Assembly: GCA_036389275.1 (NCBI GenBank)
Contig: DASVQE010000052.1
Location: 33,680 to 97,679, forward strand
Direction of reading: 5' to 3'
Length of the DNA: 64,000 nucleotides
Source of the DNA: Thermoanaerobaculia bacterium
GTDB lineage: Bacteria > Acidobacteriota > Thermoanaerobaculia > Gp7-AA8
Each line of letters starts with the position of its first letter. Within the stretch, counting starts at the first letter, position 1. Under the pieces are notes generated by a model, which was given only the letters and a program-made list of their open reading frames with translations, made no database searches and was not told the origin of the DNA. Positions 6,501-64,000 of this stretch are shown in pieces. Made by a program: the position numbers and the translations under genes.

Positions 6501-9498
6501 TCCAGCTCCGGCCCCTCCTCCGGTATTCTTTCCGGACAATGAGAGTGTCTGGTTCGACGACGCCGTGCCTGCCGGCGCGATCACTCACGAAGTCTGGACC
6601 TGGGATACGGTCCAGCGTGCGAGCGGCACTGCGTCTCATGTAGTGAACGCACCAGCCGGCGCCGGCGGTCACTGGTTTGAAAATGCCAGTACGACGTTGA
6701 CCGTCCTTCCGGGTGAGGCGTTGTTTGTCTACGCGTACCTCGATCCCTGTAATCCGCCTCGGGAGATCATGCTCGGATGGAATGACGGGTCATGGGAGCA
6801 CCGTACCTACTGGGGCGAGAACCTGATGCCCTACGCCTCGCCCTCGGGGATGTTTCGCATCGGCGATCTGCCGCGGCAGACCGGTTGGGTGAGGCTGGAA
6901 ATGCCTGCGGATTTCGTGAACCTCGCGGGCAAGACGATCAGCGGCATGGCCTTTGACGTCTATGGTGGCCGGGCGTGGTTCGATCGCGTCGGTAAGATGA
7001 GTTGTGAGCAACCACACGCGGCAACTCCTCCACCTGCATCCGACGAAGTTCTGTGGGTCGACGACAGTCTGCCCAGCGGCGCCGTCGTAACGGGTTCATT
7101 GGAGTGGGACTCGGCCGAGCAGGCGTCGGGCAACAGTTCGTTGGTGGTCCGCGGCAACCCCGGAGCGCAAGGAGTCTGGTTCTGGCAAGCGACTGCGATG
7201 ACGCCCTCGGCCACGGAAAACCTGATGGTTCATGTCCTGATCGACCCATGTGATCCACCTCGCGAGATCATGGTGGGTTGGTACGACGGGTCGTGGGAAC
7301 ATCGAGCCTACTGGGGCGAAAACCTGATGCCGTATGCGACGCCCGCAGGAATGACGAAGTTCGGCGAAGTTCCTGTTGCGGGCGAGTGGGTGACACTGGA
7401 AATCCCGGCGTCGGCGCTGAACCTGTCGCAGCATGCAATTTCCGGAATTGCGCTAGACGTCTATGGCGGACGCGTGTGGTTTGACAGAATCGGGAAGCGT
7501 GCCTGTGCGCCGACGATCGCTGCGCCTGCGCCGTTCGCACCTGGTGAGGAAGTGTGGTTCGATGACAGCGTGCCATCGGGTGCGGTCACTCACGGCGAGT
7601 GGACTTGGGACGCCACGCAGAAAACCTCCGGCTCGTCGTCGCACACATGGACGTCGTTTCCGGAATGGAGCTGGCACTGGTTCGAACAGGCCGGCAGCGG
7701 GATGACGTTGAACGCGGGCGACAACTTGTTCGTCTACGCGCTCATCGACCCATGTGATCCTCCGCGCGAGATCATGCTGGGGTGGTTCGACGGCACGTCG
7801 TGGGATCACCGCGCATATTTCGGTGAGAACCTGATGCACGTCGCACCGGCCGCTGCCGAATTCGGAATGGGCGCAGTACCTGAAGGCGGGCAATGGGTGC
7901 GTCTGGAGGTACCCGCAACGATCGCCAACCTCGCAGGCCGTACGGTGACTGGAATGGCGTTCGATGTCTTTGGCGGGAAGGTGTGGTTCGACCGTGCCGG
8001 TAAATATTCGTGCGCGGCGGGCGTCGCTCCGCGCCCGGCCGACGACACGGAAGAGCGGGTGTGGGTCGAGGACCGGGTGCCTAACGGCGCGCGTTACTAC
8101 GGTCCGTGGGAATGGGACACAAACCAGAAAGCTGGTGGCACCAGGTCGCACTTCACGCCGCCGCTCGTCGGCTGGACCTGGCATTACTTCGAAGAGGCAA
8201 CCGAAACGCCGACGGTCGGAGCCGACGACGAATTGTTCGCCTGGGTCCTGGTCGACCCGTGTGACCCGCCGCGGTCCATCATGCTCGGTTGGAATGACGG
8301 GACGTGGGACCACCGCGCCTACTGGGGAGAAGACCTCTTCCCCGTTGCCTATGGCGGTCTGAATCGCGTGCGTGTGGGTGACGTGCCGGTCGCCGGACAA
8401 TGGGTGAAATTGCGTGTTTCGGCAGAGAGGATGGGTTTAGCAGGCAAGACCCTCAACGGAATGGATTTCGACACCTGGGGCGGAAAGGTCTGGTTCGACC
8501 GCGCGGGCGCTGAGGAGCAGAATCTGGAGCCGATGAGTGCGGACGCATTGCCCCCTCCGATGACATCGTCTACCGCCGACCGGCGCGTGACGTCTGCGTC
8601 GACGACGGAGCGAACGCTCCACTACCTCTACTCCCCTGAGCTCTCACTCATCGCCGAAACCGATTCAACAGGAAATCCAAATGGCGCCGTGACGTGGGAG
8701 TACATCTGGTTCAACGGCCAACCCCTCGCCCAAATCGAAAACGCCACCGGTGCGATCGCCTGGTACTTCAACGACCACCTCGGCACCCCACTCCTCCAGA
8801 CGGACGCCGCATCAAATGTGATCTGGCGCGCCGAATACGAACCATACGGCACCGTCCACACCCTGCGCGAAGGCCCCAATCGCCACCAACCCCTCCGTTT
8901 CCCCGGCCAGGAAGCGGAGGACCTCTCGGACCGGTCGTACAACATCTTCAGGTGGTACCGGGCGGGTTGGGGGCGGTATACGCAAGCGGATCCGATTGGC
9001 GTCGTAGGCAGAGAGTTTCCGTACGCGTCCGATAATCCCATCTTTAACAGCGACATGCTCGGCCTACTGGATACGGGAGCTCTGTTGCGGCGTCCCGTCA
9101 CGCGAGCTGTTTGTGAAGTCGCTGGCGAAACTGCCGGGTGGCTTGCAGGACGCGCGGCAGGGCTGATCACGATGCTGCTCAGCGCGAGTGATGCTAACCC
9201 AGTCGAATTTGAGGATCAGATTCGCCAGTGCGACACGTGCGTTGAGCGCCGCCGACAATGTGACGAGTTAAACACTGCCGTAGAAGAGGCGAAACGGCAT
9301 GTCGGAGATCTCGGAGCTTGCCGGGCCGGCATGAGCCGTTGGGAACTGCAGCAACGATATTCCGCCTGGCTTGCGCTGGCGACAGCCCGCGCTCGGCGCG
9401 ATGTGAAATGTTGGCGCGGTGGAGATTCAGGTCATCAGCAAGCGCAGGCGGATGCATGGTCGAATGTCGGCAATTGCGCGAGATTGTTGGGACTGTGA
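553..9498 (+). CDS. giant secreted RHS/YD-repeat polymorphic toxin (2981 aa) with a C-terminal toxin domain of unknown family
   Basis: Signal peptide [31 protein letters not shown]. An RHS start motif [13 protein letters not shown] is followed by many YD repeats such as [95 protein letters not shown] and [30 protein letters not shown]. The C-terminal RHS-associated core reads [34 protein letters not shown]...[41 protein letters not shown]. Start may instead be the in-frame GTG at 559, because GGAGG at 549-553 lies 5 nt upstream of it. Confidence 0.9.
   Translation: [2981 protein letters not shown]
650..1840 (+). repeat. four tandem ~110-aa N-terminal repeats of unknown family inside the 553..9498 CDS
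   Basis: Repeating block (T/N)YSGPD(T/E/L)FGHGTL...(Y/N)FPNT(D/A)...QR.I.VVSDD(S/Q)L.A.FSPT..SGTWT(L/I)PF(N/D)(F/V)TC..G.HY(V/I)K(A/T)RAV(A/S)CN(G/H)WS(K/D)(A/P)D(F/Y)E.WS seen at about 650, 980, 1310 and, degenerate, 1565. Two conserved Cys per unit. Confidence 0.7.
2020..5150 (+). other. RHS/YD-repeat shell region of the 553..9498 toxin
   Basis: Dense YD-repeat signature (Y.YD..G(R/N)L) throughout, beginning at FGRGWSS. Confidence 0.85.
5150..5990 (+). repeat. three tandem ~90-aa Ig-like/beta-sandwich repeats inserted after the YD region
   Basis: Three copies: [67 protein letters not shown], then [64 protein letters not shown], then [65 protein letters not shown]. Confidence 0.7.
6037..8510 (+). 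repeat. five tandem ~168-aa repeats (about 505-bp period) of an unrecognised Cys-containing domain
   Basis: Units start at about 6037, 6546, 7050, 7553 and 8060. Consensus read by eye: VWFDD..P(A/S)GA....W.WD......SG..S.........HWFE.A......G(D/E).LFVY.L(V/I)DPC(D/N)[9 protein letters not shown].DGSW(E/D)[11 protein letters not shown].......G..P..G.WVRLE.PA..LNLAG.T.(S/T)GMAFDVYGG(R/K)VWFDR(A/I)GK..C. Confidence 0.8.
8600..9063 (+). other. RHS repeat-associated core domain of the 553..9498 toxin, with a degenerate terminal cleavage motif
   Basis: [86 protein letters not shown]...[61 protein letters not shown]. The first DPIG motif is present (D-P codons at 8989-8994). The usual terminal DPxGL is replaced by SDMLGL. 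Confidence 0.8.
9064..9495 (+). other. C-terminal polymorphic toxin domain (~144 aa), family not recognisable
   Basis: [143 protein letters not shown]. No nuclease, deaminase or ADP-ribosyltransferase catalytic motifs that I can identify by eye. Confidence 0.5.
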
Positions 9499-9971
9499 AT
9501 ACGCTCCAGTTGATCGAAGAAGCCTTCAGTCATCGACGCATGCCGGTGTTGTTCTTGGTTTCGGAACAGTTGGCGATGCACGAACGTGACGACGTCATGG
9601 ACTTCTGGGGAAAACCTTGGTCGTGTGTAACCGGCTCACAACTTGAGAAGCGCTTTGACGCGATATTTTGGTTTACTCCAGAAGCGTTCTGCTACTACTT
9701 GCCCGGAATCTTCAGCGCAGGCATCAAGGAAAATAAGCCATGGCTGATCGTCAATCACTCTCTGATCAACATGCTGGATCGAAGCCCCGATCCTGGCTTT
9801 TGGGATGACTTTTTTTTCGCACGGTGGTCGAAACTTACCGCGAGAGAGTGCGAGGCGACTCAGGCTTGGATCCTATGGCTTTCCTCGTGTGACGACGGCT
9901 CTTACTCGGAGAGCGCGCTCACGCGCGCCTTCGATACGCTCGACCTACTAAAAGAACGAAAAACAGCGTGA
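9495..9971 (+). CDS. candidate immunity protein for the upstream toxin (about 159 aa from GTG 9495; alternative ATG start at 9540)
   Basis: The supplied ORF 9318..9971 extends back into the toxin CDS. The GC drop starts at about 9495, and a GTG at 9495 overlaps the toxin TGA (GTGA, 9495-9498), which is classic translational coupling. Protein VNTLQLIEEAFSHRRMPVLFLVSEQLAMHERDDVMDFWGKPWSCVTGSQLEKRFDAIFWFTPEAFCYYLPGIFSAGIKENKPWLIVNHSLINMLDRSPDPGFWDDFFFARWSKLTARECEATQAWILWLSSCDDGSYSESALTRAFDTLDLLKERKTA. Markedly AT-richer than flanks: codons such as ttt, aaa, att, tta versus a 70% GC background. Confidence 0.55.
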   Translation: MNTLQLIEEAFSHRRMPVLFLVSEQLAMHERDDVMDFWGKPWSCVTGSQLEKRFDAIFWFTPEAFCYYLPGIFSAGIKENKPWLIVNHSLINMLDRSPDPGFWDDFFFARWSKLTARECEATQAWILWLSSCDDGSYSESALTRAFDTLDLLKERKTA

Positions 9972-55000: not shown

Positions 55001-58000
55001 TTCACCGTGCGCCTCACGTACGCGCCGAGCGGCGAGTCGCACCTCGTGCAGCGCGTCACCGTCGTCAATCCCGCACTCGACTTCCGCTGGCACGGCGATG
55101 CGTTCAAAGGGGAGACGCTCGACATCCCGAACGTGCTCGCGCGCCCCGAGGATCGGCTGACCATCCTGCGCAACCTCACGACGTACGGTGTGGTCACGCT
55201 GTTCGGTTACGGCGCCGCCGTGTACGACCTGAACGCGATGGAGACGAACGACTTCAAGCTCCGTTGCACCGGCACATTCCTCGGCCAGCACGGAACCGCC
55301 TGCGCGGCCGCGCTGACCCAGCGCGCGCTTCCCGAAAAGATCGTGAACACGACCGGGAGCAACGAGGGCTGCAACCTCGAGCACGACATGAGCGACGACC
55401 TCACGTACTCGCCGGAGATCTTCGGCATCGTGCGGTCGGTGCCGACCGCCAGCGGCGGCGTGAACGTCTCGCCCGACATTCACATTATCGGCGTGCGCAC
55501 CAAGAACGGTCTCATCGACGTCGTCTCCGCGCTTCCGTCGGAGGACGACGGCGGCCTCACCGACGGCTGCGAGAGCGGCGCGAACACCGTCCCGGTCGAA
55601 GATCATCCCGCGCTCTCCGCGATCATCCAGCGCGTGAGCACGACCCAACGCCAGACCGGCGGCGCGCTCTATCGCTGGGGCATCTCGTCCACCCAGAACG
55701 TGGCGGGCGTGCGCGGCTCAGCGCCGAACACCGACGTCCATCGCGACTATCTGCTCGTTGCCGCGAACAAGTGGGGCATCCTCGTCTTCGAGATCGGCGG
55801 CACTCCGCCGCCCGCCGGCCCCGGCTACGGCACCCTCGGTCTGGAGAGCCTGGTCGACGTGATCTGGATCGCCGCCGGCGCCGCCGCCGTCGCTCCGATC
55901 GAAGGCACGAACCTCGCCGCCGTCATCGATCTCAAAGGACGGCTGCTCATCCTCGATCTCGCCAACATCGACGAGCGCTGGGGCCCGGCCACCGCGGCGA
56001 ATCCGTCGCCGCTGCTGCCGCCCGGTCCGTTCAAGATCCCGACCGCGGCGATGAACGCCGCCGGCGGCGCCAGCGGAGAGATCGGCGTCGACGATCCGCG
56101 CGTCGTCTACAAGAGCGCGAACAAGTTCACCTCCGGCACGCTGCCGCCCATCGTCGATCCCGACACCGGCATCGCCTTCGGCGGCGACGTGCTCACGCAG
56201 AACATGCGCGTGCGCGCCGTGCTCGATCCGAAGATCGAGTTCCTGATCGATGCCGGCAACGGCCTCCAGCCGACCAACGGCATCACGCCGCTCGGCGTGG
56301 CCAAGCCGTCGAGCGCATCGACCACTCCTGCCGGCGCGCTCGGCGCGTTCCGCGTGCGCGTGACGCTGCCCGGCTCACTCGCCGAAGTGCTCGCCGATCA
56401 GAAGGTGCATCTCGCCGTCGAGAGCGAGCTCGTTCCGGGAGCGGTCACGCCGCAGTCGGCGCGTTCGCTGCCGCGCGCACATCTGCGCGTCAACGACCGC
56501 GAGGGAACCGTCGATCCGCGCAAGGTCACCGACTTCACGCTGCGTCGCGCCATCGCCTTCACGCCGTCGATGGAGAACACGTATCGTCACCAGCGCGGCT
56601 TCAACCGCCTGCTCTCGCCGTGGATCGTCGCTCTGGCCGATCCGCGCGCGAGCGAGCGCGTGACCGGCGACGCCGCCGCGAAGACCGCCGACGGCTGCCT
56701 CGAATGCGAGCGCCCGAGCGGCCTCAAAGGAAAGACCGAGGCCGACGGCGTGTACGAGCTGTACACCGCCGGCCGCTACATCAGCGCGCGCCTCGACAGC
56801 CATCAGCCCGGCGTGCTCGCCGTCGACGATCTCCCCGATTTCTACAAGTACCTCGCGGAGAAGTCGCGGCTCGACGTCCGCATCCCGACCACCATCGCCG
56901 ACACCGTGCGGCCGAAGGCGGCGCTCATTCCGCCGCAGCACGCGCCGCTCGCGCAGGGCACCATCGACGGCACCGTGTTCGTCCACTCGGGCGAGCTCGG
57001 CGTCGACGCGGCCGATCTCTACATCACCGGCCGCGGCCCGGCCGACCTGATGCTCACGCGCTCCTATCGCTCGCGGACCATCGGCGGCACGCCCATCGGC
57101 CTCGGATGGGACGCCTCGTTCCTCCGCCGCATCCGGCCGCTGCCCGACGGCAACGTCGAATACCGCGACGCATCGGGCGACATCTGGCTGTTCAAGAAAC
57201 CTGCGCAGGGACCGGGCGCCGCGCCGCCGGCAGCGCTGCAGGCTCTCGAGGCATCGGTCGGCGTGCGCTTCCGCTACACCGCTCCTCCCGGTCTCTACGT
57301 GAGCCTCATGCGCTCCGACGACGGCTGGACGATGCTCGACGACAAGTGGCGCATCACGCGCTTCGACAACTTCGGACGCATCACCGCCGAGACGGACGAG
57401 TTCTGGAAGGCTGCCGACGTCGGTGCCGGCGCGGCCAGCGGCAATCAGTTCCGCTATCTCTACGACATTGAAGGACGCCTCGCCCAGATCGTCGATCCGA
57501 TCGGCCGCATCACCACCATCCGCTATTGGGAGAAGAACCCCACCGGCGCGAACGTGAACTGCACGAACGTCGGCGCCAAGACCAATCCGTGCGCGTATCC
57601 CGGCCTGATGAAGGAGATCGTCGACTGGCGCCGCCGGTCGGTGCTCTTCGAGTACGACCACGTCGGCCGCCTCATCGCCGTGCAGCTCCCGAACGTGAAA
57701 GCGATCGACGGCGCGCCGTCGAGCTACGACTTCAGCACACCCGACAAGCGGCCGCGCATCCGCTATCAGTACGACAGCGCCACCGCGGCGTACCCCGGCG
57801 ACACCGCCTCGCCGCAGGAGTTCACCGACTTCATGCACTACGCGGCGAATCTCGCCGAGATCGTCGAGCCGGCGGACGAGTCGTCCGGCGACGCGCGCGT
57901 GAGGTTCGAGTTCTTCCGCACCACCGACGAGAAGCGCGACCGCCTGCACTTCGAGCGCTGGCCGTGCGGATCGCGCGCGCCCGGCTGCACGGAGACCGAA

Positions 58001-61000
58001 GCCGACTTCGCCTATCAGGGAAACATCCTCAGCATCAAAGACATGCTCGGACAGGTGTGGGAGTACGCGCTCACGCAGGACTCCGAGCAGCGGAAGCACA
58101 TCCAGAGCGTGACGGCGAAGGACGTCCCGACCTTCCACGTCTCCGCGAGCTCGACCAACATTCCGCTCGTCCTCACCGCCACCGGCGCGGATCTCGTCAC
58201 GAAGTACGAAAACTTCAGCGCCGACGGCATTCCGACGCGCACGACCTACCCGAGCGGCCGCGTCGTCGACCTGACCATCGCCGCGCCGCAGTCGAATCCC
58301 AACGCGCACTGCAAGCAGTTACAGAGCGTCAACGACAACGGCGGCGGCGCCTCACGCAACACCACCATCACCTACGAAACGCAGCAGACCGCGCTCTGCA
58401 CCGCCACGGCGTTGCAACGCGGCAACGACAAGCGCGAGACCGAGTCGCCGAGCCGCGATCGCGACAAGACCACCACCGTCGATGAGACCGCCGGCGTCTC
58501 CGTCGAAACGACGTACGACTCGTTCGGCCGCCCGACCATCGTCACCCGCAAGGGCAGCGGCACGGACTCGATGAAGACCGTCTACACGTACAAGCCGAAC
58601 AACAGCGGCGACCCGATCGCGTGGTCGCGTCTCGCCGACATCACCGGCGGCAACAACGACACCTACCAGAACTTCACGTACACCAGCGACAGCGTCGGCG
58701 GCGAGACCGTCACCGTCCACGACACGAAGCGCAAAACCACCACCACCACGCGCTACGACGCCTCGGGCCAGCCGATCTACCGCAAGCTCGACGACGACGA
58801 CTTCGGCATCCTCAGCGAAGAGAAGATGGCGTACGACGCCAGCGGCCGTCTGACGTGGACCAGCACCACCGCTCCCACCGGCACGTTCGATACGACCGTC
58901 AAATACGATCCGCTCGGTCGCGTCGACACGACCACCACCACGCGCAACAACGTGATGGGCGTCGACAAGGACCTCGAGGTGCGGCACACCTACGATCTCG
59001 CCGCGAAGATCGTCACGACCACCGATCCGGCCGGGCCGGGCGGCGCGCCGGCAGCGCAGCAGATCACCACGCTCGACGCCCTCGGCCGTCCGATTCGCAT
59101 CGAGCACCGCGCCTCGAGCCCGCCGCCGGGCGGCGGCGACACGCCGACCATCCTGCAACTGCTCGCGTACGACAAGCACGGCGCGGTGTCGTATCAATCC
59201 GACACGGTCCGCGACGCCTCGATCACTTCGCGCGATGGCCTCGGGCGTCCTGCGTTCACGCTGCGCCGCGACGGCCTCAGGACCACGTTCAGTTGGAGCG
59301 ATTGGGATCAGCCGCAGCAGACGACCGTCACGGCCGGCTCGGCCACGGTGTCGAGCACGCGGCAGTTCTTCACCGACGAGGGACAGCTCTACGCGACGAA
59401 CGAGAGCGTCGACACGCGCGTGCGGCGCACGCGCCGGACGTGGCTCGCCGGCGGCCAGCAGGTGCTCGACCGCACCGGCATCGGCTTCGGCCTCAACGAC
59501 GACACCGCACCCGGCGCGGCGCGCGGCACGCGCACCACCACCGATCTCGCCGGCCGCGTCACCGACGTGGTGACCGGCGGCCTCGGCGCCGGCGACACCG
59601 ACATCACCAAGATCTATCACCACACGAACTTCGCCGACTTCCGCGGCGACGTCGCCACGCTGGTGCACGAGATCGAGCCGATGCGCAACGTCACGATCGA
59701 TCACCGCCAGACGCTCGACGGACTCGATCGCGTCCGCAACGCGAAGATCAGCGACCACTACGAGACCACCACCACCTACGACGTCGCCGGCAATCTCGAG
59801 CTGGTGACGCCTTCCGGCGAAGGCGCGACGCGGATGTTCTCCGACAGCCGCGGACTGACCTATCGCACCGAGCGCCCCGACGCGCCGGACAACGTCGTGC
59901 TGCGCTTCTTCGACGAGCGCGGCGCGCTGCGCCGCATCACCGACGAGACCGGCGACATCACCAACTACATCACCGACGATCTCGGCCGCGTCGTGCGCGT
60001 CGACTATCCCGACACCACGCACGAAGAGACCCGCTACGAAAACAAGACCGGCCTGGTCACAGCTACGCGCGATCGCGCCGGGCAGTGGCTGTCGTACAAC
60101 TTCGACGACGGCGGCCGCGTCACCCACATCCGCCTCGGCGAAGATCCGAACAACGGCCCGGTCGTCACCGAGATCGAATACAACGACGCCAAACGGATCG
60201 CGCGCGTCGCGAACAAAAACGGCGCCGTCGAGTACGAAGCGTACGACGACCTCGGACGTCCGACGCTCACGCGCACGATCCGCTACGCGAACGAGTCGGG
60301 CCTCAAGCCGGCGCCCGACCGCATCGTCTCCGACTCGCACACGCAGACGCACGCCTGGTCGGTGTTCGGCTCGGAGCGCTCCTCCTGGAGTCTGCCCGTC
60401 GCCGGCACCAGCCCTGCCGCGCAGAACGGTACGAGCTGGCGCACCGCCGTGATCGAAACGCGCGACGCCGGCGGCAACCTGGTGCTGCAGCAGGCCAACG
60501 GCGCCGACATCGCCACCGCAATCCCCGGCGGCATCGGTCGTGTGCTCGAGCACGATCGCGCGCTCTCGACCAGCGGCATGCTGGCGACGTCTTACGGATT
60601 CACCGACGCGTCCGGAAGCGGCCCCGATCCGGGCGATCCGGCGATCGCGCCGAGCGGCATGCTCTCGAGGTCGGAGACGAAAGTCGGCAGCCGCGTCCTC
60701 GCCGGTACGCAGACGTTCCCCGACCGGTCGCTCCGCGTGCGCACCGCGCACGATCTCGCCCTCGGCCGCTCGTCGAAATGGGTGTACGACGGGCGCGGGC
60801 GGCTCACCAGCAGCAAGCTCCTCGTGCCGCAGGAAGATCTGCTCACGACTCCCGCGATCGCCGATGTGCTGAGCGGATCGGAGTTCCGCGAGGAGCGTCA
60901 AACCGAAACGATCTTCGGACCGCTCGAGCACGGACGCCTCGGCCTCGCGCGCTCGCTCGAAGTCGAGCCGGCGTCGTGGCGCGCCGACGAAGATCCGGGA

Positions 61001-63190
61001 CACCAGATCGACAACCGCACCATGAAACTCGACGGTGCGGACGTGCTGCAGCGCGACTACGCGTTCGCCGACGGACGCCGCTCCACCGACGGCGTCTGGC
61101 AGAGCACCTACGACGAGTTCGGCCGCCTCACGCGCATCGAAAGCAGCTCGCGCCGCATCGAGTACGTCTACGGTCCGACCGACCGCATCATCGGCCGCAA
61201 CGCCTACATGGTGGGCGGCAGCGGCTGGACGCTCGAGACGCGCAGCACCGTTCTCGCTGCGGACGCTCTGCCGGCGCAGACGACGTTCGTGTGGGACCCG
61301 ATCGTCGACCGCCTCGTCGCGATTTACGACGCCGGTGCTTCGACCGGCGCGACCGCCGCGCCCGATGCCGGACTGCTGCGCCAATACGTGCACGGCGACG
61401 CCGGCTACGACGATCCGGGCGAAGTGTTCGTCGCCTCCACACCCGGCGGCACCGCCACGCGTTACCTCCCGGTCTTCGACGAAGCTGGTACGGGCTCGCT
61501 GCAGGCCGTGGTGGACGGAGACGGCCACGTCGTCGAGCGCGTGCTCTTCGGCGACTCGTACGGCGCCGCGCCGCGCTTCCTGCACGGCCCGGTGGTCGAG
61601 AAGGTGACGTTCACCGCCAAGCGCGATCCGGCCGGCACGATCACGGAGGCCGAGGTTCGCGTCCGCTTCAGCGAGAACGTCGCCTCGAGCGGCCTCGCCA
61701 ACGCCATGCGCCTCCGCGCGCTCGATGCAGACGGCGAGCAGGTCGCGCTGCACGGCGGCGCGCCGGAGTTCCCCGACCCGACGAGCGACGATCACCACGA
61801 GCTCCGCTGGCGCCTCACGCCGGGCGACTGGTCCGCCCTCGTCAACGCCGCCGGCGCCGAGTCGATCGAAGTCGCCGTCTCCTCATCCCTCCGCACCGAC
61901 GCCTGGGGCAACACCCCCGTCCAGGAAGTCCCCGACTGGGCCCACACCCTCTTCGGCGCCACCAGCACCACCGCCTACCCGGTCATCGTCACCGCCCTGA
62001 TCACCACCCTCACCACCCCCCCAGCCGCCGGAATGCCGCAGCCGCCCCTGTACGAGATCAAGTCCCTCTACATGGCGGCCTCCCCAACCTCCCGCACCCA
62101 CACCCTAACCGGCTTCAAAGCCGCCCCCTTCACCGACCCCGCCACCGGCCTCGCCTTCTTCCGAGCCCGCTGGTACGACCCCGAAACCGGCACCTGGCTC
62201 ACGCCGGATCCGGTCGGTTACGACGATTCCTCGAACCTCTACGCGTTCGCAGGTGGCGATCCGGTGAATAGCTCGGACCCGACGGGATTGTGCCTCGGTT
62301 TCGGACAAGGCACTTGCGCCGATTGGGCGAACGCAGGGAAGAAGAAGCTCGATGCAGTTCGACTCTTCGTCGACAAGCACACCGGCTCGACAATTTTCGA
62401 CGTCGGAGTCAACGCGCAGCTTGGCTTCGCACTCGATGTCGTCGATACCTTCGTGTTGGATCCGTTACGTTTTGGCGAAGCAACGGGTACGGCGATCGGC
62501 AGCGGCGCCGGCGCGGTGTCAACCACGCTTGCTGTCGTTCAGGACGTCGGGCGCGGCGCTGCACTCGCGGCAGGTGCCGGGACAGTGATCAGGGCCGCAG
62601 CTCGATTCACTGTCGCGGTGCGTTCGGCCGTAGCGTTCGACTCGCTTGGAGAAGCTGCAGCTCGCGGCTTGGACGAGGGAGCAGCGATCGCGGCGCGCGA
62701 GCTTGCGCCGGACATTTCCGCCGCGGCAGTTCAAGAACAGCGCGTTCTGGCCAATATCGCGGAGAGTGCCGAGGCGCGAGCCGCGTCAAACTTCCCGACC
62801 ACCGCAGCGGCCGCAGATGAGCTGACCGGCATTACCAACCGCGCGGCAAAGATCACCGACCGTCTGATCAAAAACAACAGTACATATTGGGCGAGGGTGT
62901 ACAACAATCCTGCGCTGCGCGGCCAGCGATTTGCGAGAGCCTTTGCGCGAAATCCGAATTTTGCACGTAGTCTTATCCGTGGAAACATCATGGATGACGT
63001 CGTCAAGCAGCTCGCTCAGAAATCGGGCAAGCTGCCGTTCATGCGGATCACGCCTCGTGGCGCCCGCGGAGCAGATTTCATCAACCTTTTCCTCAACAGC
63101 GCGTGGGACGTGACGACAGCCGGATCGTGGGCGCGACATGTGAGTCGTTACGCGAAGGAAATGTATCGACTTTATCCGTTAATCTATTAG
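43013..63190 (+). CDS. giant secreted RHS/YD-repeat polymorphic toxin (6725 aa) with a ~4600-aa N-terminal LamG/Ig/SbsA stalk and a C-terminal toxin domain of unknown family
   Basis: TTG start at 43013 preceded by AAGGAA at 43001-43006. Signal peptide MRPGSSFAFSAVAAVAAALVLSFAAPLAAQTP. Contains a LamG-like domain, 18 tandem Ig-like domains, SbsA Ig-like and CarboxypepD_reg-like domains and a few LVIVD-like repeats. The RHS region begins at IGLGWDASFLRR with many YD repeats (YLYDIEGRLAQIVDPIGRITTIRY, FEYDHVGRLIAVQLPN, YTYDLAAKIVTTTDPAG, YEAYDDLGRPTLTRTIRY). The RHS core ends SDPTGL. Confidence 0.9.
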   Translation: MRPGSSFAFSAVAAVAAALVLSFAAPLAAQTPITAYSDDFQSYGTQSNPPGWVDTSIGASAPEAAGLYKTWPDPTQGNSGPNVVYGTKQSSGQPEGNNPRVGTFSTYTAKSFAGAGRFEYSGRFLRTSADTRVGITFFSSYPQADRYYLIGLWSHPQQTTKLTMQLFGFGGPAPQQTTVSDFTPEVGKWYRFRVRVDDVEGKTVIRGRFWLDTNAEPQTWHIDAVDASAGRLTSGRIGIWSAVRGDAYVDDISAQSPVDHAPPTISFFVGDTPLTDGMKFHTAVTPRIVVTDDLSEVRWTAQLDGGNFVTPVTGQGDHILRVDAKDAVGNTASKSVTFYIDTIPPRLTIVKPADGSITSSDVNISLHVDDASLPATFAATLDGATWDVTRPVSAEGQHQLTVTAFDAVGLASAPQTATFIIDKTAPAYELFANAKAFPADGYVFGEDVTITIVPKDLTLDKVSLLLDGAPYTAGTPVTDERKHTLGGTVTDKVGHVTTIAERTFWIDKTAPTVELLGNGTAIKQYYDIASLVAELKISDVTATRVTATLNGAPANLPVTLTGEATYVVAGSVTDAANHVTPFGPTTFAIDRSAPQITLSANGAAFPASGHIFLGDVALAVDVKDLTLADYSVTHDGAAVELPLTLTDEFRDHVIKVVATDKLNHSASVGPLTFTIDKFAPVVAVTNNGAELTDGRYFNRPVRPVINVTDITATTVTATLNGQRFESGSEITADGAYTLAGNVADGAGRSTPIGPIAFTIDTTAPTGVFVEGDNKPFPDGKTLNVEAIRASVKITDANPLPAKILLDGAEYAEGTPITLEDAHTLTATLVDKAGNSGSVPPVSFRIDRTRPVLTLFANGDVFPAKAFDTRFDVAVTYKVEDKSAVTIAATLDGANVTLPVTISDERVHTLVATATDAAGNVGTAGPFTFTIEKTPPNVEVLLNDAPAGLNAVFKVDVRVKLQISAGLTSRSASILLNGQSYVEGTAITAPGVYVVTGTVTTASGVTVPIPETTFTIDKTAPDVTLKNRDRDFEANGFHYNADVVPNVTCHDDLTRCTTELKVDGNDWKNGDPITAEGEHAVVAAATDTAGNRKELPAVTFVLDKTSPAITITAPAEGQTVSAPRVVVSGTSDDAVSIDVNGTLATIDAAAKTFTTTPVALLEGENEIVVVALDQAGNASTRTVHVVADTRAPLLAVQSPAPNACLNAQQLVVRGSVSDPWIQTVKVTVDADVVANALDAQKQTFTATFANIAEGPHRISVEATDTLGHRTVAALQVMIDRTAPLIDIFEGAAPFTARLVNHPVALSIRARDGDPNVAVAARLGATPYVSGTPIAAPGAYHLDVLAEDCAGNQSTQPLDFEIDLLAPAFDTLVPPNGATVGALPQSITGHVSRDAVRVEIEGTAIAAAPSADGNFVLALGSIAREGANQFVLRATDAAGNVAQVPYAFTVHSAAPTIQIYESGKPLSDGALFNRPVTPEVRVSDPTAQVTVLIGGQTWDQKPLTADGTYTISVTVRDELQRTAEASRTFTIDRTPPVVKITKPLAGTVSSDVVTIEGTAGDAVSVDVHGAIVAPGAGGAFRREGVRLEVGQNDLVVSATDRAGNTAADSVLVTWLGSGPAIVITSPRDASLTNRPRIDVTGHVLGALGGGEVVVGSKTATLDATGVFRVTDYQLAGGENVITARVPNGASASVTITADFKAPALSVLASGQPLANDAHFPGEVSISVNASDDRNLALTRVTIDGAEPPSLPAKVSSTGGHVLNARARDEAGNETVVERTFFIGSGGGGSGCSIEEVDPADGATVAPSANATTASVRITGRASGATAVTINGAAADVADGTFAKTVELPSEGANAIGIRCTDASGALSEPKNLVYYRVSGNPSVRITAPAEGGTTGDKSVVVTGEVGADVVSIDVNGIAGTIRDGSPRTFRVENVTLTDGTNILVAHGRNNAYRVGTHSVRVLSLQTAPQIRITSPEANSVAGGGKTTVGGTYSNLLPQTLAIAGGTNAPAADVVALSDTTGTFVFRGVGLAAGARTLTITGRNAAGVAATASLVVNSDPAAASIEIAAPSDNAYVPASEPVTVTGAYAGASGTARVEINGVAATVDPTASTYAGSAQHTGAPLTPVVARLIDANGSGPAASIMVRKLAGPLRVRSTFPADGAEGVDPGVLLLIDFSAPLDRATLSAIQLRSGSTPVDGTLRVDDSVVIFTPSTLLAPGTSYTVTIPATLKDVAGNAIDKASSFSFTTTVSAPSTPPQLDPIAITGCPATVSITGSAPPFARLRLEVGTIALSGQADASGRFTMAFPLSGRSGYQSGHLTIVGSDGSRSPEAPVSFRMDCAAPSVVGASYDRNANVLTIAFSKPVAAPTLVVGSSIVLTTSDNNSIGGTVALSGAIATVTPASDLRDKSFTLEVQTSVTDTAGNHLGSPFPQTFSLDGGDAPLPGDGSGFITGEVYDATSGRPLRGATVSVEVPRSAFARVPSVTSHAHLTTSGDVEMSKETDPRGRYTLPLPEGAHTIKAGSPQHTTVWRQIVVPAGAGVVPIDIRLTRRGERKSAATLPLTLQDGGGALTVTAPVKLTVTGGVASQAQVALTSVGAQSLAGLLPLGFSPIASAEVAVFGADGAASFDAQVNGELEFTLPSAAISAAHQTLSLVRYDSERDEWRTLIAVMAPAAGDAWRAPITSAGAYGVVYRDQASTLRQPPAPAAGATLQPATETCATSATPCVLVRKEFDIEPPVVPPSGRAVAKLQIAGEDAATFPSGTAVQAYVNEVLTLSSGDTVVDPPFTTDVLLYRTLDGKVGIGEFLIEPSEQARREVLETGVDQVKILQYPGRLDRGSLIGSEGGRVPGDSVTNVEIPAGATSEQLRATVATLKPENLGVAIAGFDVVGGFDLTLTRVATPPQTDADGDGVPDPAPALQLSRAARATINVDTAKLASPDAQLILVEVVNQSAWGAFYRLAVPMTRLDTPANGVTLVRYTSQSVNPASLAVDGIVREGRFLLLAAKAPIAFASGALRSTATGPYLPDMRVNSVMAGGAAYGVSDVTRASGVFALPIAAAPAPSFSITPRHARFGVGTAFTAAAPAAGETVAIGDWLFVVQPLRLTNVTPADGEIVPVAPITIKADFDLPIDTLSLQNAITVATTDGAIPLGGRIERDAADDHRVVFTSTGTVSASTTYRVTIQPTVRATNGAVLGQVHTFLVRTEGLPRTGEIHPERIRITLPDAQGHSRIFGDAKAIPAGFQVVAQRPDKGFRSVYDATAGANGDFSFVVGDRNDSDRLDLGDVVEVQILNLAFNVVATVQLTPFVTEDGKGFVAAANRDTTFVSTQGVAVTVAAGTFDKATLVTTDLNDSKAAFAAVPNFDQELHWVKTLDLHFDGTAKQRIEVSIPRPANLPLDGHDYLIGLLGQSSRGPRIAIEALLHPEGDKLTTALPPESSGANLQTKAAAMSGSGAAAAQFCMPGVFGAGSNAIFEMGNIGAEAVGWGFIAPIQQYMEVFNDMFQATYLPSLAYQTAKCRAIPVVKGKPFHLIGVDPDTGSQIFNTPYSAIDDINSIVAIDNPFPDTTGPFPIFGAPFRVERLEAPAPADNDGNGSIDPGEFKGRGFVVTRTESGTLTVTNDSNAAAQDVLPENTTVRLYNATRSILSTAATVGGGGSFTITSTASEGDLLFLYIGGRDVAPDATMNIVFSEPIAVGTIPTGADDPTRNQIINTYLHGVIKLEQVFDTGAVDISSNAVFRADSGNRRVLIDLPATFVRDGRYRITALASLTDPKNNRLAERRDKNGTVIGTPAADITFDFKVRPGPTSDHAFTLQPTATQTGGSLKDLARFGNLVFVAALDGGLLAYDISEPSMSNGTLPIAVVPTNWANSGVQVSDFWSVAADHHGRIYGGGFQASFSVVRGYRVEDFLAARDGQLNCPGGPHTNCISHGSAIVGWRPGVGVGMPLNAGWMVTNQPSAYPRKIKLLEQDDEQSATLDELKSNTGDGVEILDEVSAGNGYHRFTVRLTYAPSGESHLVQRVTVVNPALDFRWHGDAFKGETLDIPNVLARPEDRLTILRNLTTYGVVTLFGYGAAVYDLNAMETNDFKLRCTGTFLGQHGTACAAALTQRALPEKIVNTTGSNEGCNLEHDMSDDLTYSPEIFGIVRSVPTASGGVNVSPDIHIIGVRTKNGLIDVVSALPSEDDGGLTDGCESGANTVPVEDHPALSAIIQRVSTTQRQTGGALYRWGISSTQNVAGVRGSAPNTDVHRDYLLVAANKWGILVFEIGGTPPPAGPGYGTLGLESLVDVIWIAAGAAAVAPIEGTNLAAVIDLKGRLLILDLANIDERWGPATAANPSPLLPPGPFKIPTAAMNAAGGASGEIGVDDPRVVYKSANKFTSGTLPPIVDPDTGIAFGGDVLTQNMRVRAVLDPKIEFLIDAGNGLQPTNGITPLGVAKPSSASTTPAGALGAFRVRVTLPGSLAEVLADQKVHLAVESELVPGAVTPQSARSLPRAHLRVNDREGTVDPRKVTDFTLRRAIAFTPSMENTYRHQRGFNRLLSPWIVALADPRASERVTGDAAAKTADGCLECERPSGLKGKTEADGVYELYTAGRYISARLDSHQPGVLAVDDLPDFYKYLAEKSRLDVRIPTTIADTVRPKAALIPPQHAPLAQGTIDGTVFVHSGELGVDAADLYITGRGPADLMLTRSYRSRTIGGTPIGLGWDASFLRRIRPLPDGNVEYRDASGDIWLFKKPAQGPGAAPPAALQALEASVGVRFRYTAPPGLYVSLMRSDDGWTMLDDKWRITRFDNFGRITAETDEFWKAADVGAGAASGNQFRYLYDIEGRLAQIVDPIGRITTIRYWEKNPTGANVNCTNVGAKTNPCAYPGLMKEIVDWRRRSVLFEYDHVGRLIAVQLPNVKAIDGAPSSYDFSTPDKRPRIRYQYDSATAAYPGDTASPQEFTDFMHYAANLAEIVEPADESSGDARVRFEFFRTTDEKRDRLHFERWPCGSRAPGCTETEADFAYQGNILSIKDMLGQVWEYALTQDSEQRKHIQSVTAKDVPTFHVSASSTNIPLVLTATGADLVTKYENFSADGIPTRTTYPSGRVVDLTIAAPQSNPNAHCKQLQSVNDNGGGASRNTTITYETQQTALCTATALQRGNDKRETESPSRDRDKTTTVDETAGVSVETTYDSFGRPTIVTRKGSGTDSMKTVYTYKPNNSGDPIAWSRLADITGGNNDTYQNFTYTSDSVGGETVTVHDTKRKTTTTTRYDASGQPIYRKLDDDDFGILSEEKMAYDASGRLTWTSTTAPTGTFDTTVKYDPLGRVDTTTTTRNNVMGVDKDLEVRHTYDLAAKIVTTTDPAGPGGAPAAQQITTLDALGRPIRIEHRASSPPPGGGDTPTILQLLAYDKHGAVSYQSDTVRDASITSRDGLGRPAFTLRRDGLRTTFSWSDWDQPQQTTVTAGSATVSSTRQFFTDEGQLYATNESVDTRVRRTRRTWLAGGQQVLDRTGIGFGLNDDTAPGAARGTRTTTDLAGRVTDVVTGGLGAGDTDITKIYHHTNFADFRGDVATLVHEIEPMRNVTIDHRQTLDGLDRVRNAKISDHYETTTTYDVAGNLELVTPSGEGATRMFSDSRGLTYRTERPDAPDNVVLRFFDERGALRRITDETGDITNYITDDLGRVVRVDYPDTTHEETRYENKTGLVTATRDRAGQWLSYNFDDGGRVTHIRLGEDPNNGPVVTEIEYNDAKRIARVANKNGAVEYEAYDDLGRPTLTRTIRYANESGLKPAPDRIVSDSHTQTHAWSVFGSERSSWSLPVAGTSPAAQNGTSWRTAVIETRDAGGNLVLQQANGADIATAIPGGIGRVLEHDRALSTSGMLATSYGFTDASGSGPDPGDPAIAPSGMLSRSETKVGSRVLAGTQTFPDRSLRVRTAHDLALGRSSKWVYDGRGRLTSSKLLVPQEDLLTTPAIADVLSGSEFREERQTETIFGPLEHGRLGLARSLEVEPASWRADEDPGHQIDNRTMKLDGADVLQRDYAFADGRRSTDGVWQSTYDEFGRLTRIESSSRRIEYVYGPTDRIIGRNAYMVGGSGWTLETRSTVLAADALPAQTTFVWDPIVDRLVAIYDAGASTGATAAPDAGLLRQYVHGDAGYDDPGEVFVASTPGGTATRYLPVFDEAGTGSLQAVVDGDGHVVERVLFGDSYGAAPRFLHGPVVEKVTFTAKRDPAGTITEAEVRVRFSENVASSGLANAMRLRALDADGEQVALHGGAPEFPDPTSDDHHELRWRLTPGDWSALVNAAGAESIEVAVSSSLRTDAWGNTPVQEVPDWAHTLFGATSTTAYPVIVTALITTLTTPPAAGMPQPPLYEIKSLYMAASPTSRTHTLTGFKAAPFTDPATGLAFFRARWYDPETGTWLTPDPVGYDDSSNLYAFAGGDPVNSSDPTGLCLGFGQGTCADWANAGKKKLDAVRLFVDKHTGSTIFDVGVNAQLGFALDVVDTFVLDPLRFGEATGTAIGSGAGAVSTTLAVVQDVGRGAALAAGAGTVIRAAARFTVAVRSAVAFDSLGEAAARGLDEGAAIAARELAPDISAAAVQEQRVLANIAESAEARAASNFPTTAAAADELTGITNRAAKITDRLIKNNSTYWARVYNNPALRGQRFARAFARNPNFARSLIRGNIMDDVVKQLAQKSGKLPFMRITPRGARGADFINLFLNSAWDVTTAGSWARHVSRYAKEMYRLYPLIY
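43100..43800 (+). other. N-terminal LamG/concanavalin-like jelly-roll domain (DUF1080-like)
   Basis: FQSYGTQSNPPGWVD...GKWYRFRVRVDDVEGKTVIRGRFWLDTNAEPQTWHIDAVDASAGRLTSGRIGIWSAVRGDAYVDDIS. The terminal G.IG(I/L)....G...(F/V)D.(I/V) pattern is characteristic of this lectin-like fold. Confidence 0.5.
43790..48350 (+). repeat. 18 tandem ~85-aa Ig-like domains (about 255-bp period)
   Basis: Linker motif (T/A)F.ID(K/R)T(A/P)P recurs at about 44030, 44270, 44520, 44770, 45030, 45280, 45540, 45795, 46050, 46305, 46560, 46835, 47085, 47345, 47595, 47850, 48095 and 48340. Each unit also carries a T.TD.AGN.S/T motif. Confidence 0.8.
49450..54400 (+). other. region with at least four SbsA-type Ig-like domains (about 49450-49750, 50025-50310, 52300-52620, 54040-54400), a CarboxypepD_reg-like domain (about 50340-50600) and unassigned sequence
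   Basis: First SbsA-type example: LRVRSTFPADGAEGVDPGVLLLIDFSAPLDRATLSAIQLRSGSTPVDGTLRVDDSVVIFTPSTLLAPGTSYTVTIPATLKDVAGNAIDKASSFSFTT. CarboxypepD_reg-like example: GFITGEVYDATSGRPLRGATVSVEVPRS. LVIVD-like examples at about 54460-54540 (GNLVFVAALDGGLLAYDISEPS) and 55750 (GILVFEIGG). Confidence 0.55.
57100..61800 (+). other. RHS/YD-repeat shell region of the 6725-aa toxin
   Basis: Begins with the RHS start motif G.GW (IGLGWDASFLRRIRPLPDGNVEYRDASGDIWLF) and has dense YD repeats to about 61700. Confidence 0.85.
61990..62290 (+). other. RHS repeat-associated core with canonical DPxGL autoproteolysis motif
   Basis: FRARWYDPETGTWLTPDPVGYDDSSNLYAFAGGDPVNSSDPTGL. The DPTGL codons lie at about 62276-62290. 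Confidence 0.8.
62291..63187 (+). other. C-terminal polymorphic toxin domain (~299 aa), family not recognisable
   Basis: CLGFGQGTCADWANAGKKKLDAVRLFVDKHTGSTIFDVGVNAQLGF...NRAAKITDRLIKNNSTYWARVYNNPALRGQRFARAFARNPNFARSLIRGNIMDDVVKQLAQKSGKLPFMRITPRGARGADFINLFLNSAWDVTTAGSWARHVSRYAKEMYRLYPLIY. Lower GC than the host background. Confidence 0.5.
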
Positions 63191-63192
63191 CC

Positions 63193-64000
63193 ATGCCGGA
63201 GAAGCAGAAGGCGGTTGCGAGGATTTTGGCCGCGCAAACAGCGCAGGAAATGCGAGAGATTGCAGAGCGGTACGACATGATCGCGGGCGGGAAGATCGAC
63301 CTTCGCGATACCAGGTGCCGATTCAATCACGCTGAGATTGATCTTAAGGAATTCCTGCTCACCGGCTGTGATCTGTCGGGGTCGACTCTGACGAACTGCA
63401 TGGGAGAGGGCGTCAGCTTCGACGGGTGCAGGCTGAAGCAGGTTCGCATCACGGCCGAGAAAGGCAGGAAGGTGTCGTTTCAGGAAGCTTCGTTCAATGA
63501 AGCTTTTTTGGAGGACGTCACAATCGGTCCTCGCACACTCGATCTCTCTCGGACTATGTACCGGAAGGCGCGTCTGCGAAACGTCACCTTCACAATGGGA
63601 AAGCTTTTCAATGCGGATTTCACCGGCGCGCTCTTCGAGGATGTGTTTTTTCGAAGCGCTGAATTGAAGAGCGCAAGCTTCCGAGGGGCGAGTCTTACGA
63701 GAGTCTCGTTTGAAAAGGCAACGCTCGAGGACGCTGATTTCTCCCAGGCGGAGTTTCATCAAATGGAGCACTGGGGAGAGCCCGATTTTTCCGGCGCTAA
63801 AATCAGCGATGATCTGCGGTATAGGTACGGGATTGTCCGCGATCCGTCCTCAAAGATTGTTGCGCTCATCAATAGCGGCAGGTTCAATCAAGACGAAGCC
63901 GCTGTACTGAGCGCCTTTCTCGAGCGCAACAGAGACTTTCTCTCGAATCCCGAAGTGATGCTGATCGGGTCCGAGTACGATATCGACGCTGGCCTGTTCG
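63193..64000 (+). CDS. pentapeptide-repeat protein, candidate immunity protein (at least 269 aa; runs off the 3' end of the window)
   Basis: Own translation from ATG 63193, 2 nt after the toxin TAG, open to the window end: MPEKQKAVARILAAQTAQEMREIAERYDMIAGGKIDLRDTRCRFNHAEIDLKEFLLTGCDLSGSTLTNCMGEGVSFDGCRLKQVRITAEKGRKVSFQEASFNEAFLEDVTIGPRTLDLSRTMYRKARLRNVTFTMGKLFNADFTGALFEDVFFRSAELKSASFRGASLTRVSFEKATLEDADFSQAEFHQME... Tandem A(D/N)(L/F)xx pentapeptides. GC about 50-55%, well below background. Not in the supplied ORF track because there is no stop in the window. Confidence 0.75.
   Translation, partial: MPEKQKAVARILAAQTAQEMREIAERYDMIAGGKIDLRDTRCRFNHAEIDLKEFLLTGCDLSGSTLTNCMGEGVSFDGCRLKQVRITAEKGRKVSFQEASFNEAFLEDVTIGPRTLDLSRTMYRKARLRNVTFTMGKLFNADFTGALFEDVFFRSAELKSASFRGASLTRVSFEKATLEDADFSQAEFHQMEHWGEPDFSGAKISDDLRYRYGIVRDPSSKIVALINSGRFNQDEAAVLSAFLERNRDFLSNPEVMLIGSEYDIDAGLF

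Follow-up and report, generated by a model that had tools for sequence, protein, structure and literature searches.

The 64,000-nucleotide stretch of DNA analysed here (the window; positions 33,680 to 97,679 of the forward strand of contig DASVQE010000052.1, GenBank assembly GCA_036389275.1, from a Thermoanaerobaculia bacterium of the Acidobacteriota) carries near its 3′ end a giant RHS-type polymorphic toxin gene (43013-63190, + strand, 6,725 aa in the list of open reading frames, ORFs; positions are those of the window unless a contig is named). In a first-pass annotation of the sequence, this gene was described as ending in a ~299-aa toxin tip of no assignable family behind a break in codon composition. 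The locus raises the question of where such a tip comes from, what it would do in a target cell, and what shields the cell that makes it. On balance, we favour the explanation that the 3′ end of the ORF is a tip-replacement mosaic, that its toxin domain is a divergent nuclease of the restriction-endonuclease fold, and that the pentapeptide-repeat protein encoded directly downstream serves as an immunity plug.

The ORF runs from a signal peptide through Ig-like domains and a shell of DUF6531 and RHS repeats to an RHS core end and a variable tip. The N-terminal 4,600 of its 6,725 aa match Pfam Big_13, Big_5, Big_3_3, Glucodextran_B and other families, while the Pfam scan of 57002-62290 gave DUF6531 and RHS_repeat (6.8e-17, 5 stretches). 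The NCBIfam model TIGR03696 (Rhs_assc_core) matched the protein at 9.9e-17, above its 32.5-bit cut-off. The conserved core end (RWYDPETG...DPTGL, 62165-62290, + strand) closes with a PxxxxDPxGL cleavage motif, GGDPVNSSDPTGL, at 62252-62290, of which DPTGL occupies nt 62276-62290; the tip that follows (62291-63187) measures exactly 299 aa, and the stop codon lies at 63188-63190. A YD/RHS shell, a core ending in a DPxGL cleavage motif, a variable tip and an immunity gene downstream are what characterise the Rhs/YD-repeat toxins known from E. coli, Salmonella, Dickeya and Serratia, and all of them were found here. No PAAR, VgrG, TPS or LXG domain was detected in the N-terminal 4,663 aa, which hold only the signal peptide and the Ig-like domains. 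A PAAR/VgrG delivery module marks the effectors of type VI secretion systems (T6SS) among Rhs proteins, not Rhs toxins in general. Unlike the T6SS-type proteins, the gene lacks the PAAR/VgrG signature, and its carrier is a 6,725-aa protein with a Sec signal and Ig repeats in an Acidobacteriota-like background. It also differs from known Rhs toxins in its bipartite tip, made of a linker and a toxin domain, and in an extra C3-rich segment upstream of the junction (C3 and G3, C or G at third codon positions).

How the tip reached this gene can be read at the junction. A low-GC3 cassette (GC3, G+C content at third codon positions), which comprises the core end, the linker, the toxin domain and the pentapeptide-repeat gene, was recombined into the ORF at about nt 62165-62250, and it is the conserved core end that holds the junction, being the place at which the homology of the cassette starts and at which GC3 falls. 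The search of the tip against 5.8 billion proteins returned four relatives only (P0001-P0004). P0001, 474 aa long and 77% identical across the whole tip, has a signal-like N-terminus of its own and retains no more of the RHS core than its last ~40 residues. On its 24.8-kb metagenome contig (L001), the P0001 gene adjoins tyrosine recombinase genes, and a pentapeptide-repeat gene comes after it. By blastn, window positions 62165-63979 aligned with L001 10397-12213 at 69% identity, and since this alignment begins at 62165, the shared unit starts within RWYDPETG, in agreement with the support interval found for the GC3 break. GC3 drops there from 0.89 to 0.65 (change point nt 62249, support 62162-62285, likelihood ratio 70), within the core end and about 30-130 nt ahead of the end of DPTGL, and it stays low through the tip (0.65) and the pentapeptide gene (0.67). 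The fall that had first been placed after DPTGL is real, but it begins before that motif ends.

Positions 1-21425 of L001 correspond to ENA ERZ27251625 k141_2048271. The cassette is flanked there by two tandem copies of a module with a helix-turn-helix (HTH) regulator, a SymE-like toxin, a ~1,000-aa primase/Toprim protein, a tyrosine integrase and PIN, and an additional integrase gene lies immediately upstream of the toxin. L001 resembles an array of integrative elements with a captured toxin tip.

Relatives of the shell carry other tips. With the 597 residues upstream of DPTGL as query, 15 relatives were found at 40-52% BLASTP identity, two of them from Vicinamibacterales and Thermoanaerobaculia metagenome-assembled genomes (MAGs). 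When compared segment by segment, the relatives (P0130-P0138 among them) showed 38-55% identity in the shell end, 55-81% in the core end and 10-25% past DPxG. P0130 ends in an RNase A-like tip and has a CdiI_2 immunity gene, and P0136 has a NucA/NucB DNase tip with an SMI1_KNR4 gene, in an array of orphan toxin modules. The GC3 fall at the core end was also seen in the loci of both these relatives, L009 and L010. Relatives with the same shell end but unrelated tips and immunity genes, together with the GC3 falls and the homology to L001, make tip replacement via the conserved core end well supported. Tip swapping had initially been proposed from a codon style common to two loci of the window; it is borne out on other evidence, namely the unrelated tips of the shell relatives and the orphan copy near integrases. 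In known Rhs toxins, composition likewise drops between core and tip, relatives bear unrelated tips, and orphan copies with a truncated core end lie beside integrases. In L009 (1-14508; contig_2084, 705 kb), the shell-end relative lies among orphan modules of Tox-REase-7, PT-HINT and NucA/NucB with SMI1_KNR4, and an ISL3 transposase interrupts.

Just upstream of the cassette, a C3-rich, G3-depleted codon tract (61823-62164, + strand) extends over the final shell/plug segment and the beginning of the core end. A turn towards C-rich codons near 61850 had been noticed on first inspection, and codon usage across the junction is indeed not uniform. In four-fold codon families, C accounts for 0.84 and G for 0.09 in 61850-62200; over the 6,279 remaining codons of the ORF, the shares are 0.56 and 0.38. 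Of 1,324 sliding windows, those that start at 61808-61868 rank highest (C3/(C3+G3) of 0.91; mean 0.60, standard deviation 0.08), and neither of the other two giant ORFs has a window as high. The C-rich tract is a real synonymous effect, beyond amino-acid composition alone: after stratification by amino acid, 67 C-ending codons were observed in 61823-62164 against 39.5 expected (z = 6.97). For example, GCC:GCG for Ala is 17:1 and ACC:ACG for Thr is 17:0, compared with 337:354 and 345:285 in the rest of the ORF. The maximum-likelihood change point of C3 falls at nt 61823 (support 61802-61871, permutation p ≤ 0.002).

This tract is a separate compositional segment, which we tentatively regard as a remnant of an earlier exchange. 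Another explanation, which we think unlikely, is that C3-rich, G3-poor tracts are not foreign and instead reflect function or mutation in the 3′ parts of these very long genes, for example unstructured C-rich RNA that acts as a Rho-loading (rut-like) site, or local codon selection. The GC3 of the tract (0.91) is host-like, with only the choice between C and G deviating, and G is avoided in the two-fold NNR codons too. At the protein level the tract is homologous to the relatives at an ordinary 40-48% identity, and for that reason it is not an insertion. Moreover, the top C3/(C3+G3) windows of all three giant ORFs lie near the 3′ end or before the core end (61823-62164, 8623-8950 and 42366-42956). 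On the other hand, the composition is not kept at the same position in relatives, the equivalent region being mildly C-rich in L009 and reversed to G-rich in L010, and the effects at 8623-8950 and 42366-42956 are modest (z = 3.8 and 2.7) in regions chosen after looking. A donor for the tract was also searched for by per-segment identity to the 15 relatives; all values fell at 40-55% and the ranking did not change, so that no breakpoint could be mapped.

As the C-rich tract lies outside the cassette common to the orphan copy, and has a GC3 of 0.91 against 0.65 in the tip, the 3′ end of the ORF is a three-part mosaic and not a single foreign block. This bears on the earlier proposal that the first toxin of the window (ORF 553-9498, + strand), at whose core the same foreign style had been seen, and the present one carry cassettes of common origin. 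In ORF 553-9498 an RHS core end precedes an Ntox16 tip (Pfam 1.3e-6), and a comparable G3-depleted tract does occur just before its core end (8623-8950; C 0.65-0.71, G 0.12-0.14), but the effect is weaker (z = 3.84) than at 61823-62164 and the region was picked after inspecting the data. The two C-rich tracts have no DNA similarity to each other or elsewhere in the window, and the tips, Ntox16 in one locus and an unnamed family in the other, are unrelated. With the tract placed outside the shared cassette and differing from it in GC3, the idea of a common foreign origin is not supported.

The tip itself, although its length was given correctly, is really two units. The N-terminal module (62291-62728, + strand), a linker or pre-toxin of ~146 aa, is Ala/Gly-rich, mildly hydrophobic and probably helical. 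The toxin domain (62729-63187, + strand; 153 aa) belongs to an unnamed family and forms the block that is conserved in P0001-P0004. The linker is shared with P0001, and with P0133 (50% identity over 131 aa), in which the C-terminal toxin is different. It is absent from P0002-P0004 and from the Acidobacteriota MAG locus L005, where only the last ~150 residues of the tip are shared. The linker is thus separable from the toxin domain, as each occurs without the other. A transmembrane reading of the linker is not supported (hydropathy maximum of 1.2, no clear membrane helix). The C-terminal ~150 aa of P0133 (1,013 aa) contain 'GFDF...INEVKH', a textbook PD...E-x-K motif. Judging from these sequences, the same linker carries at least two different toxins, probably nucleases.

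The family of the toxin domain is unnamed and yet widespread. Its motifs are RG-x2-ID-x3-K, GPD, WD-x-TT and W-x2-H-x2-[KR]Y. A profile built from five close sequences retrieved 126 clusters at 50% identity (E ≤ 1e-3) from 1.84 billion representatives, and nearly all matches lie at the extreme C-terminus of their proteins, with a median of 3 residues left after the match. The carriers are RHS proteins, one eCIS_core protein and many short proteins, found in soil, freshwater and human-gut metagenomes and named in databases either 'hypothetical protein' or only 'RHS repeat-associated protein'. The absence of an assignable family, as first noted, was confirmed. The Pfam scan of the tip gave no family at E ≤ 1, and no consistent one over 67 diverse members at E ≤ 5; the members bear no Pfam domain in this region, and NCBIfam and PHROGs scans of the 67 likewise named no family. 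NCBIfam gave only a spurious TrbL match to the tip (17.9 bits against a cut-off of 442), and neither the PHROGs scan nor the profile search of PDB sequences matched the toxin domain. P0102 (1,128 aa) carries this toxin domain as a fusion with the eCIS core domain PF13699, and the family is predicted to be cargo of extracellular contractile injection systems as well as of RHS proteins. Near-identical pairs of toxin and pentapeptide genes occur in L047-L053, L074 and L078 (39% to the query by tblastn; the partner mostly has 293 aa), where they lie at the ends of ORFs that span at least ~940 aa; three of these contigs are titled human-gut metagenome.

Conservation among the 67 members is concentrated in a few positions, which are numbered here within the 153-aa domain. 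D116 (67/67; preceded by P in 53 and by A in 11), T129 (67/67) and H137 are invariant, G85, D89, G114 (64 members), D127 (66/67), T130, W134 and Y141 are nearly so, and K/R93 and K/R140 are conserved basic positions. AlphaFold2 gave a predicted local distance difference test score (pLDDT) of 48.9 with 5 sequences and of 91.5 once the profile search supplied distant relatives. In this model of the toxin domain (helices H76-99 and H131-140; strands E105-107, E117-119, E124-129 and E147-152), the secondary-structure order is alpha-beta-beta-beta-alpha-beta, as in the PD-(D/E)xK core, preceded by a helical N-terminal extension (residues 1-75). D89 lies in the first helix, G-P-D116 at strand 2, D127-x-T129 in strand 3 and H137-x3-Y141 in the next helix, a layout that we take to parallel motifs I-IV of RecB/Cas4-type nucleases. 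A Foldseek search of the model against PDB returned nothing significant. Among the weak, non-significant Foldseek matches in the viral library, most belong to this same PD-(D/E)xK superfamily (Vsr, archaeal Holliday junction resolvase (HJR)/MutH, T7 endonuclease I, TnsA-N and DUF559), and the best long structural alignments were to Cas4, BamHI and PspGI, with no significant score.

Based on this model, the toxin domain is most likely a divergent metal-dependent nuclease of the restriction-endonuclease fold (RecB/Cas4-like). The predicted core, the acid of helix 1, the literal G-P-D, D-x-[T] and H-x3-Y, which resembles QxxxY, are what it shares with PD-(D/E)xK (RecB/Cas4) proteins and Tox-REase toxins; it differs from them in the invariant threonine in place of the lysine, in the long helical N-terminal extension and in the lack of a significant sequence or structure score. 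None of the Pfam Tox-REase models matched the domain. Membership of the PD-(D/E)xK superfamily is likely, and not established, because the lysine expected in strand 3 is the invariant threonine. PD-(D/E)xK variants with a relocated lysine are known, and in the modelled structure K93 or K/R140 may replace the missing one. The first-pass annotation had suggested nucleic-acid binding from a basic, Arg/Asn-rich C-terminal part. That part is basic indeed (+13 over the last 149 aa of the tip; +12 with an isoelectric point, pI, of 10.7 over the 153-aa domain), and activity directed at nucleic acid is plausible.

Directly behind the toxin lies the candidate immunity gene (63193-64000, + strand). Its ATG starts 2 nt past the toxin stop, and it runs off the window after 269 visible aa. 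It encodes a bona fide pentapeptide-repeat protein, with Pfam matches to Pentapeptide_4 (PF13599; 1.4e-18, 67.1 bits, cut-off 38), Pentapeptide (PF00805; 5.2e-17, 61.5 bits, cut-off 20.2) and PF13576 (44.2 bits, cut-off 27). It is 64% identical to the product of the gene after P0001, and its relatives are 284-309 aa long. The first-pass annotation had proposed looking for the same pair of tip and pentapeptide gene elsewhere, and the pair recurs. A pentapeptide gene directly follows the toxin in all eight individually examined loci (L001-L008; in L003 the contig ends after 52 codons), and a metagenome scan with the motif WWD[IVM]TT found 68 loci, 65 of them evaluable (at least 300 nt downstream), among which the next ORF was a member of the pentapeptide family in 58. 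The identity of the partners also tracks that of the toxins, with 45-71% within the close subfamily, 15-25% between close and distant members and 19-34% among the distant ones. From this adjacency and co-divergence, the pentapeptide-repeat protein is most likely the immunity protein of the producer.

The beta-helices of MfpA, Qnr and AlbG are the size of DNA and mimic it. By analogy, the rod-like beta-helix of the partner would plug the nucleic-acid cleft of the toxin as a DNA-shaped competitive inhibitor. The charges of the window pair, +12 for the toxin domain and -6 (pI 5.3) for the partner, are of opposite sign. To our knowledge, however, all characterised protective pentapeptide-repeat proteins (Qnr, MfpA, McbG, AlbG) act on gyrase or topoisomerase, and this suggests another explanation, in which the toxin poisons or modifies DNA gyrase or topoisomerase IV and the partner protects the target, as those proteins do, without binding the toxin. 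We consider this improbable. In its favour, the window partner matches the Qnr and MfpA models of NCBIfam, though below threshold and far under the cut-offs, and the partners are not consistently acidic, as a simple DNA-mimic plug would favour. Against it, a target protector would be pressed to stay constant along with conserved gyrase, whereas the partner diverges with the toxin down to 15-25% and is nearly always adjacent to it, which fits a specific toxin-binding immunity protein, even if co-inheritance alone could give the same pattern. Furthermore, a nuclease-like core that bears three near-invariant acidic residues and a histidine suggests that the toxin is a metal-dependent hydrolase. 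We know MfpA, Qnr, AlbG and McbG as guards of gyrase against small molecules or peptides, not against a protein toxin; here a pentapeptide-repeat protein stands beside a probably nucleic-acid-directed Rhs toxin.

It is also improbable, though resting on the same fold and motif evidence as the nuclease reading and made conceivable by the loss of the canonical lysine, which suggests altered chemistry, that the domain cuts RNA (tRNA or rRNA) in the manner of the Burkholderia pseudomallei CdiA-CT tRNases, with the partner blocking the RNA-binding face: some PD-(D/E)xK domains of polymorphic toxins are tRNases, but pentapeptide-repeat helices mimic B-form duplex DNA and not tRNA, and the data give no preference for RNA over DNA.

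If the toxin is a nuclease countered by a plug, as we favour, the tip would be freed by autoproteolysis at DPTGL and enter a neighbouring cell. There D89 in the first helix, D116 of GPD at strand 2 and D127 of D-x-T in strand 3 would bind metal, and the toxin would cut nucleic acid, most likely DNA; the pair H137 and Y141, in the helix that comes next, resembles the QxxxY motif. The producer would meanwhile be shielded by the co-transcribed pentapeptide-repeat protein. Several observations speak against this reading. The lysine of (D/E)xK is replaced by a threonine in every one of the 67 members. No sequence profile in Pfam, NCBIfam, PHROGs or PDB ties the family to any nuclease family. Over the whole family, both partners (median -2, range -16 to +7) and toxins (median +2) are only mildly charged, and electrostatic DNA mimicry is for that reason not a family-wide signal. 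Finally, none of the 15 relatives is close enough to map a breakpoint for the C-rich tract.

A bolder version of this explanation is possible, though doubtful to us. Here, the toxins would form an undefined, widespread family that combines a D-x-T catalytic variant with a dedicated class of pentapeptide immunity (as cleft plug or, which would be more unusual, as Qnr-like target protection), and would be the first toxin family with a DNA-shaped beta-helix as its cognate immunity, while the G3-depleted tract may be a functional element that accompanies tip exchange.

Rhs tip swapping with a drop in composition at the junction is textbook and the ordinary part of this finding. The new part is a toxin family of 126 clusters that Pfam, NCBIfam, PHROGs and PDB do not describe, with a near-obligate pentapeptide partner. 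DNA mimicry and the protection of gyrase are what the pentapeptide fold is known for, and pentapeptide-repeat immunity is not mentioned anywhere in the standard polymorphic-toxin catalogue (Zhang et al. 2012, PMC3482391). If our explanation holds, nucleases would gain a new variant, pentapeptide-repeat proteins a biological role that is both new and very common, and many orphan pentapeptide genes beside toxin tips a function; the study of DNA mimicry would also be offered a compact protein-protein pair.

Three further published systems come close. In a survey of His-Me finger nucleases, YjbI-like pentapeptide genes were reported beside GH-E Rhs nuclease tips and were not interpreted as immunity (PMC5714182). 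The partner described here resembles those genes, as it does MfpA and Qnr, in being a pentapeptide-repeat protein; it differs from both groups in that its pairing is near-universal for one toxin family and in its length of ~300 aa, which includes additional segments at the N- and C-terminus. In the Tse6-Tsi6a pair of Stenotrophomonas rhizophila CFBP13503, the toxin is an Rhs C-terminal domain of unknown function whose orthologues are reported either without a carrier domain or with an Rhs, HINT, TPS or Ig-like one, and Tsi6a resembles the pentapeptide-repeat antitoxin of a Mycobacterium chelonae type VII secretion system (T7SS) toxin (bioRxiv 10.64898/2026.07.13.738213). Compared by description only, Tse6 may belong to the same family as our 153-aa toxin domain, but it is called rare and restricted to saline habitats, whereas the family here spans its many clusters in soil, freshwater and the human gut. 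The third is the Tox-REHH (STox_30) DNase, a newly recognised polymorphic-toxin DNase that had earlier lacked annotation and whose immunity proteins mimic the DNA backbone (bioRxiv 10.64898/2026.09.22.753552). Identity with Tox-REHH was considered and rejected, as that toxin is a divergent HNH nuclease (Arg, Glu, His, His) with Imm22, SUKH, CdiI-like or Imm24 immunity, unlike the present family with its D, D, D-x-TT, W, H and Y, another beta-sheet topology and pentapeptide immunity.

In the rest of the window, a candidate immunity ORF for the Ntox16 tip of the first toxin lies within 9318-9971. ORF 553-9498 has a GC3 of 0.72, against 0.91 in the two giant genes, and the first ~10 kb of the window have a lower G+C content (0.59-0.65). 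It may be that the entire first toxin locus was acquired separately. The giant toxin gene itself is preceded by another, with which it stands in tandem after a 53-nt gap (15261-42959, + strand, 9,232 aa; GC3 0.91-0.92 in both). The two tandem giant genes probably form one operon for a giant surface apparatus. ORF 15261-42959 is without a toxin end, and its C-terminal part is built from long repeats with the pattern '...VVDV..P..P..'.

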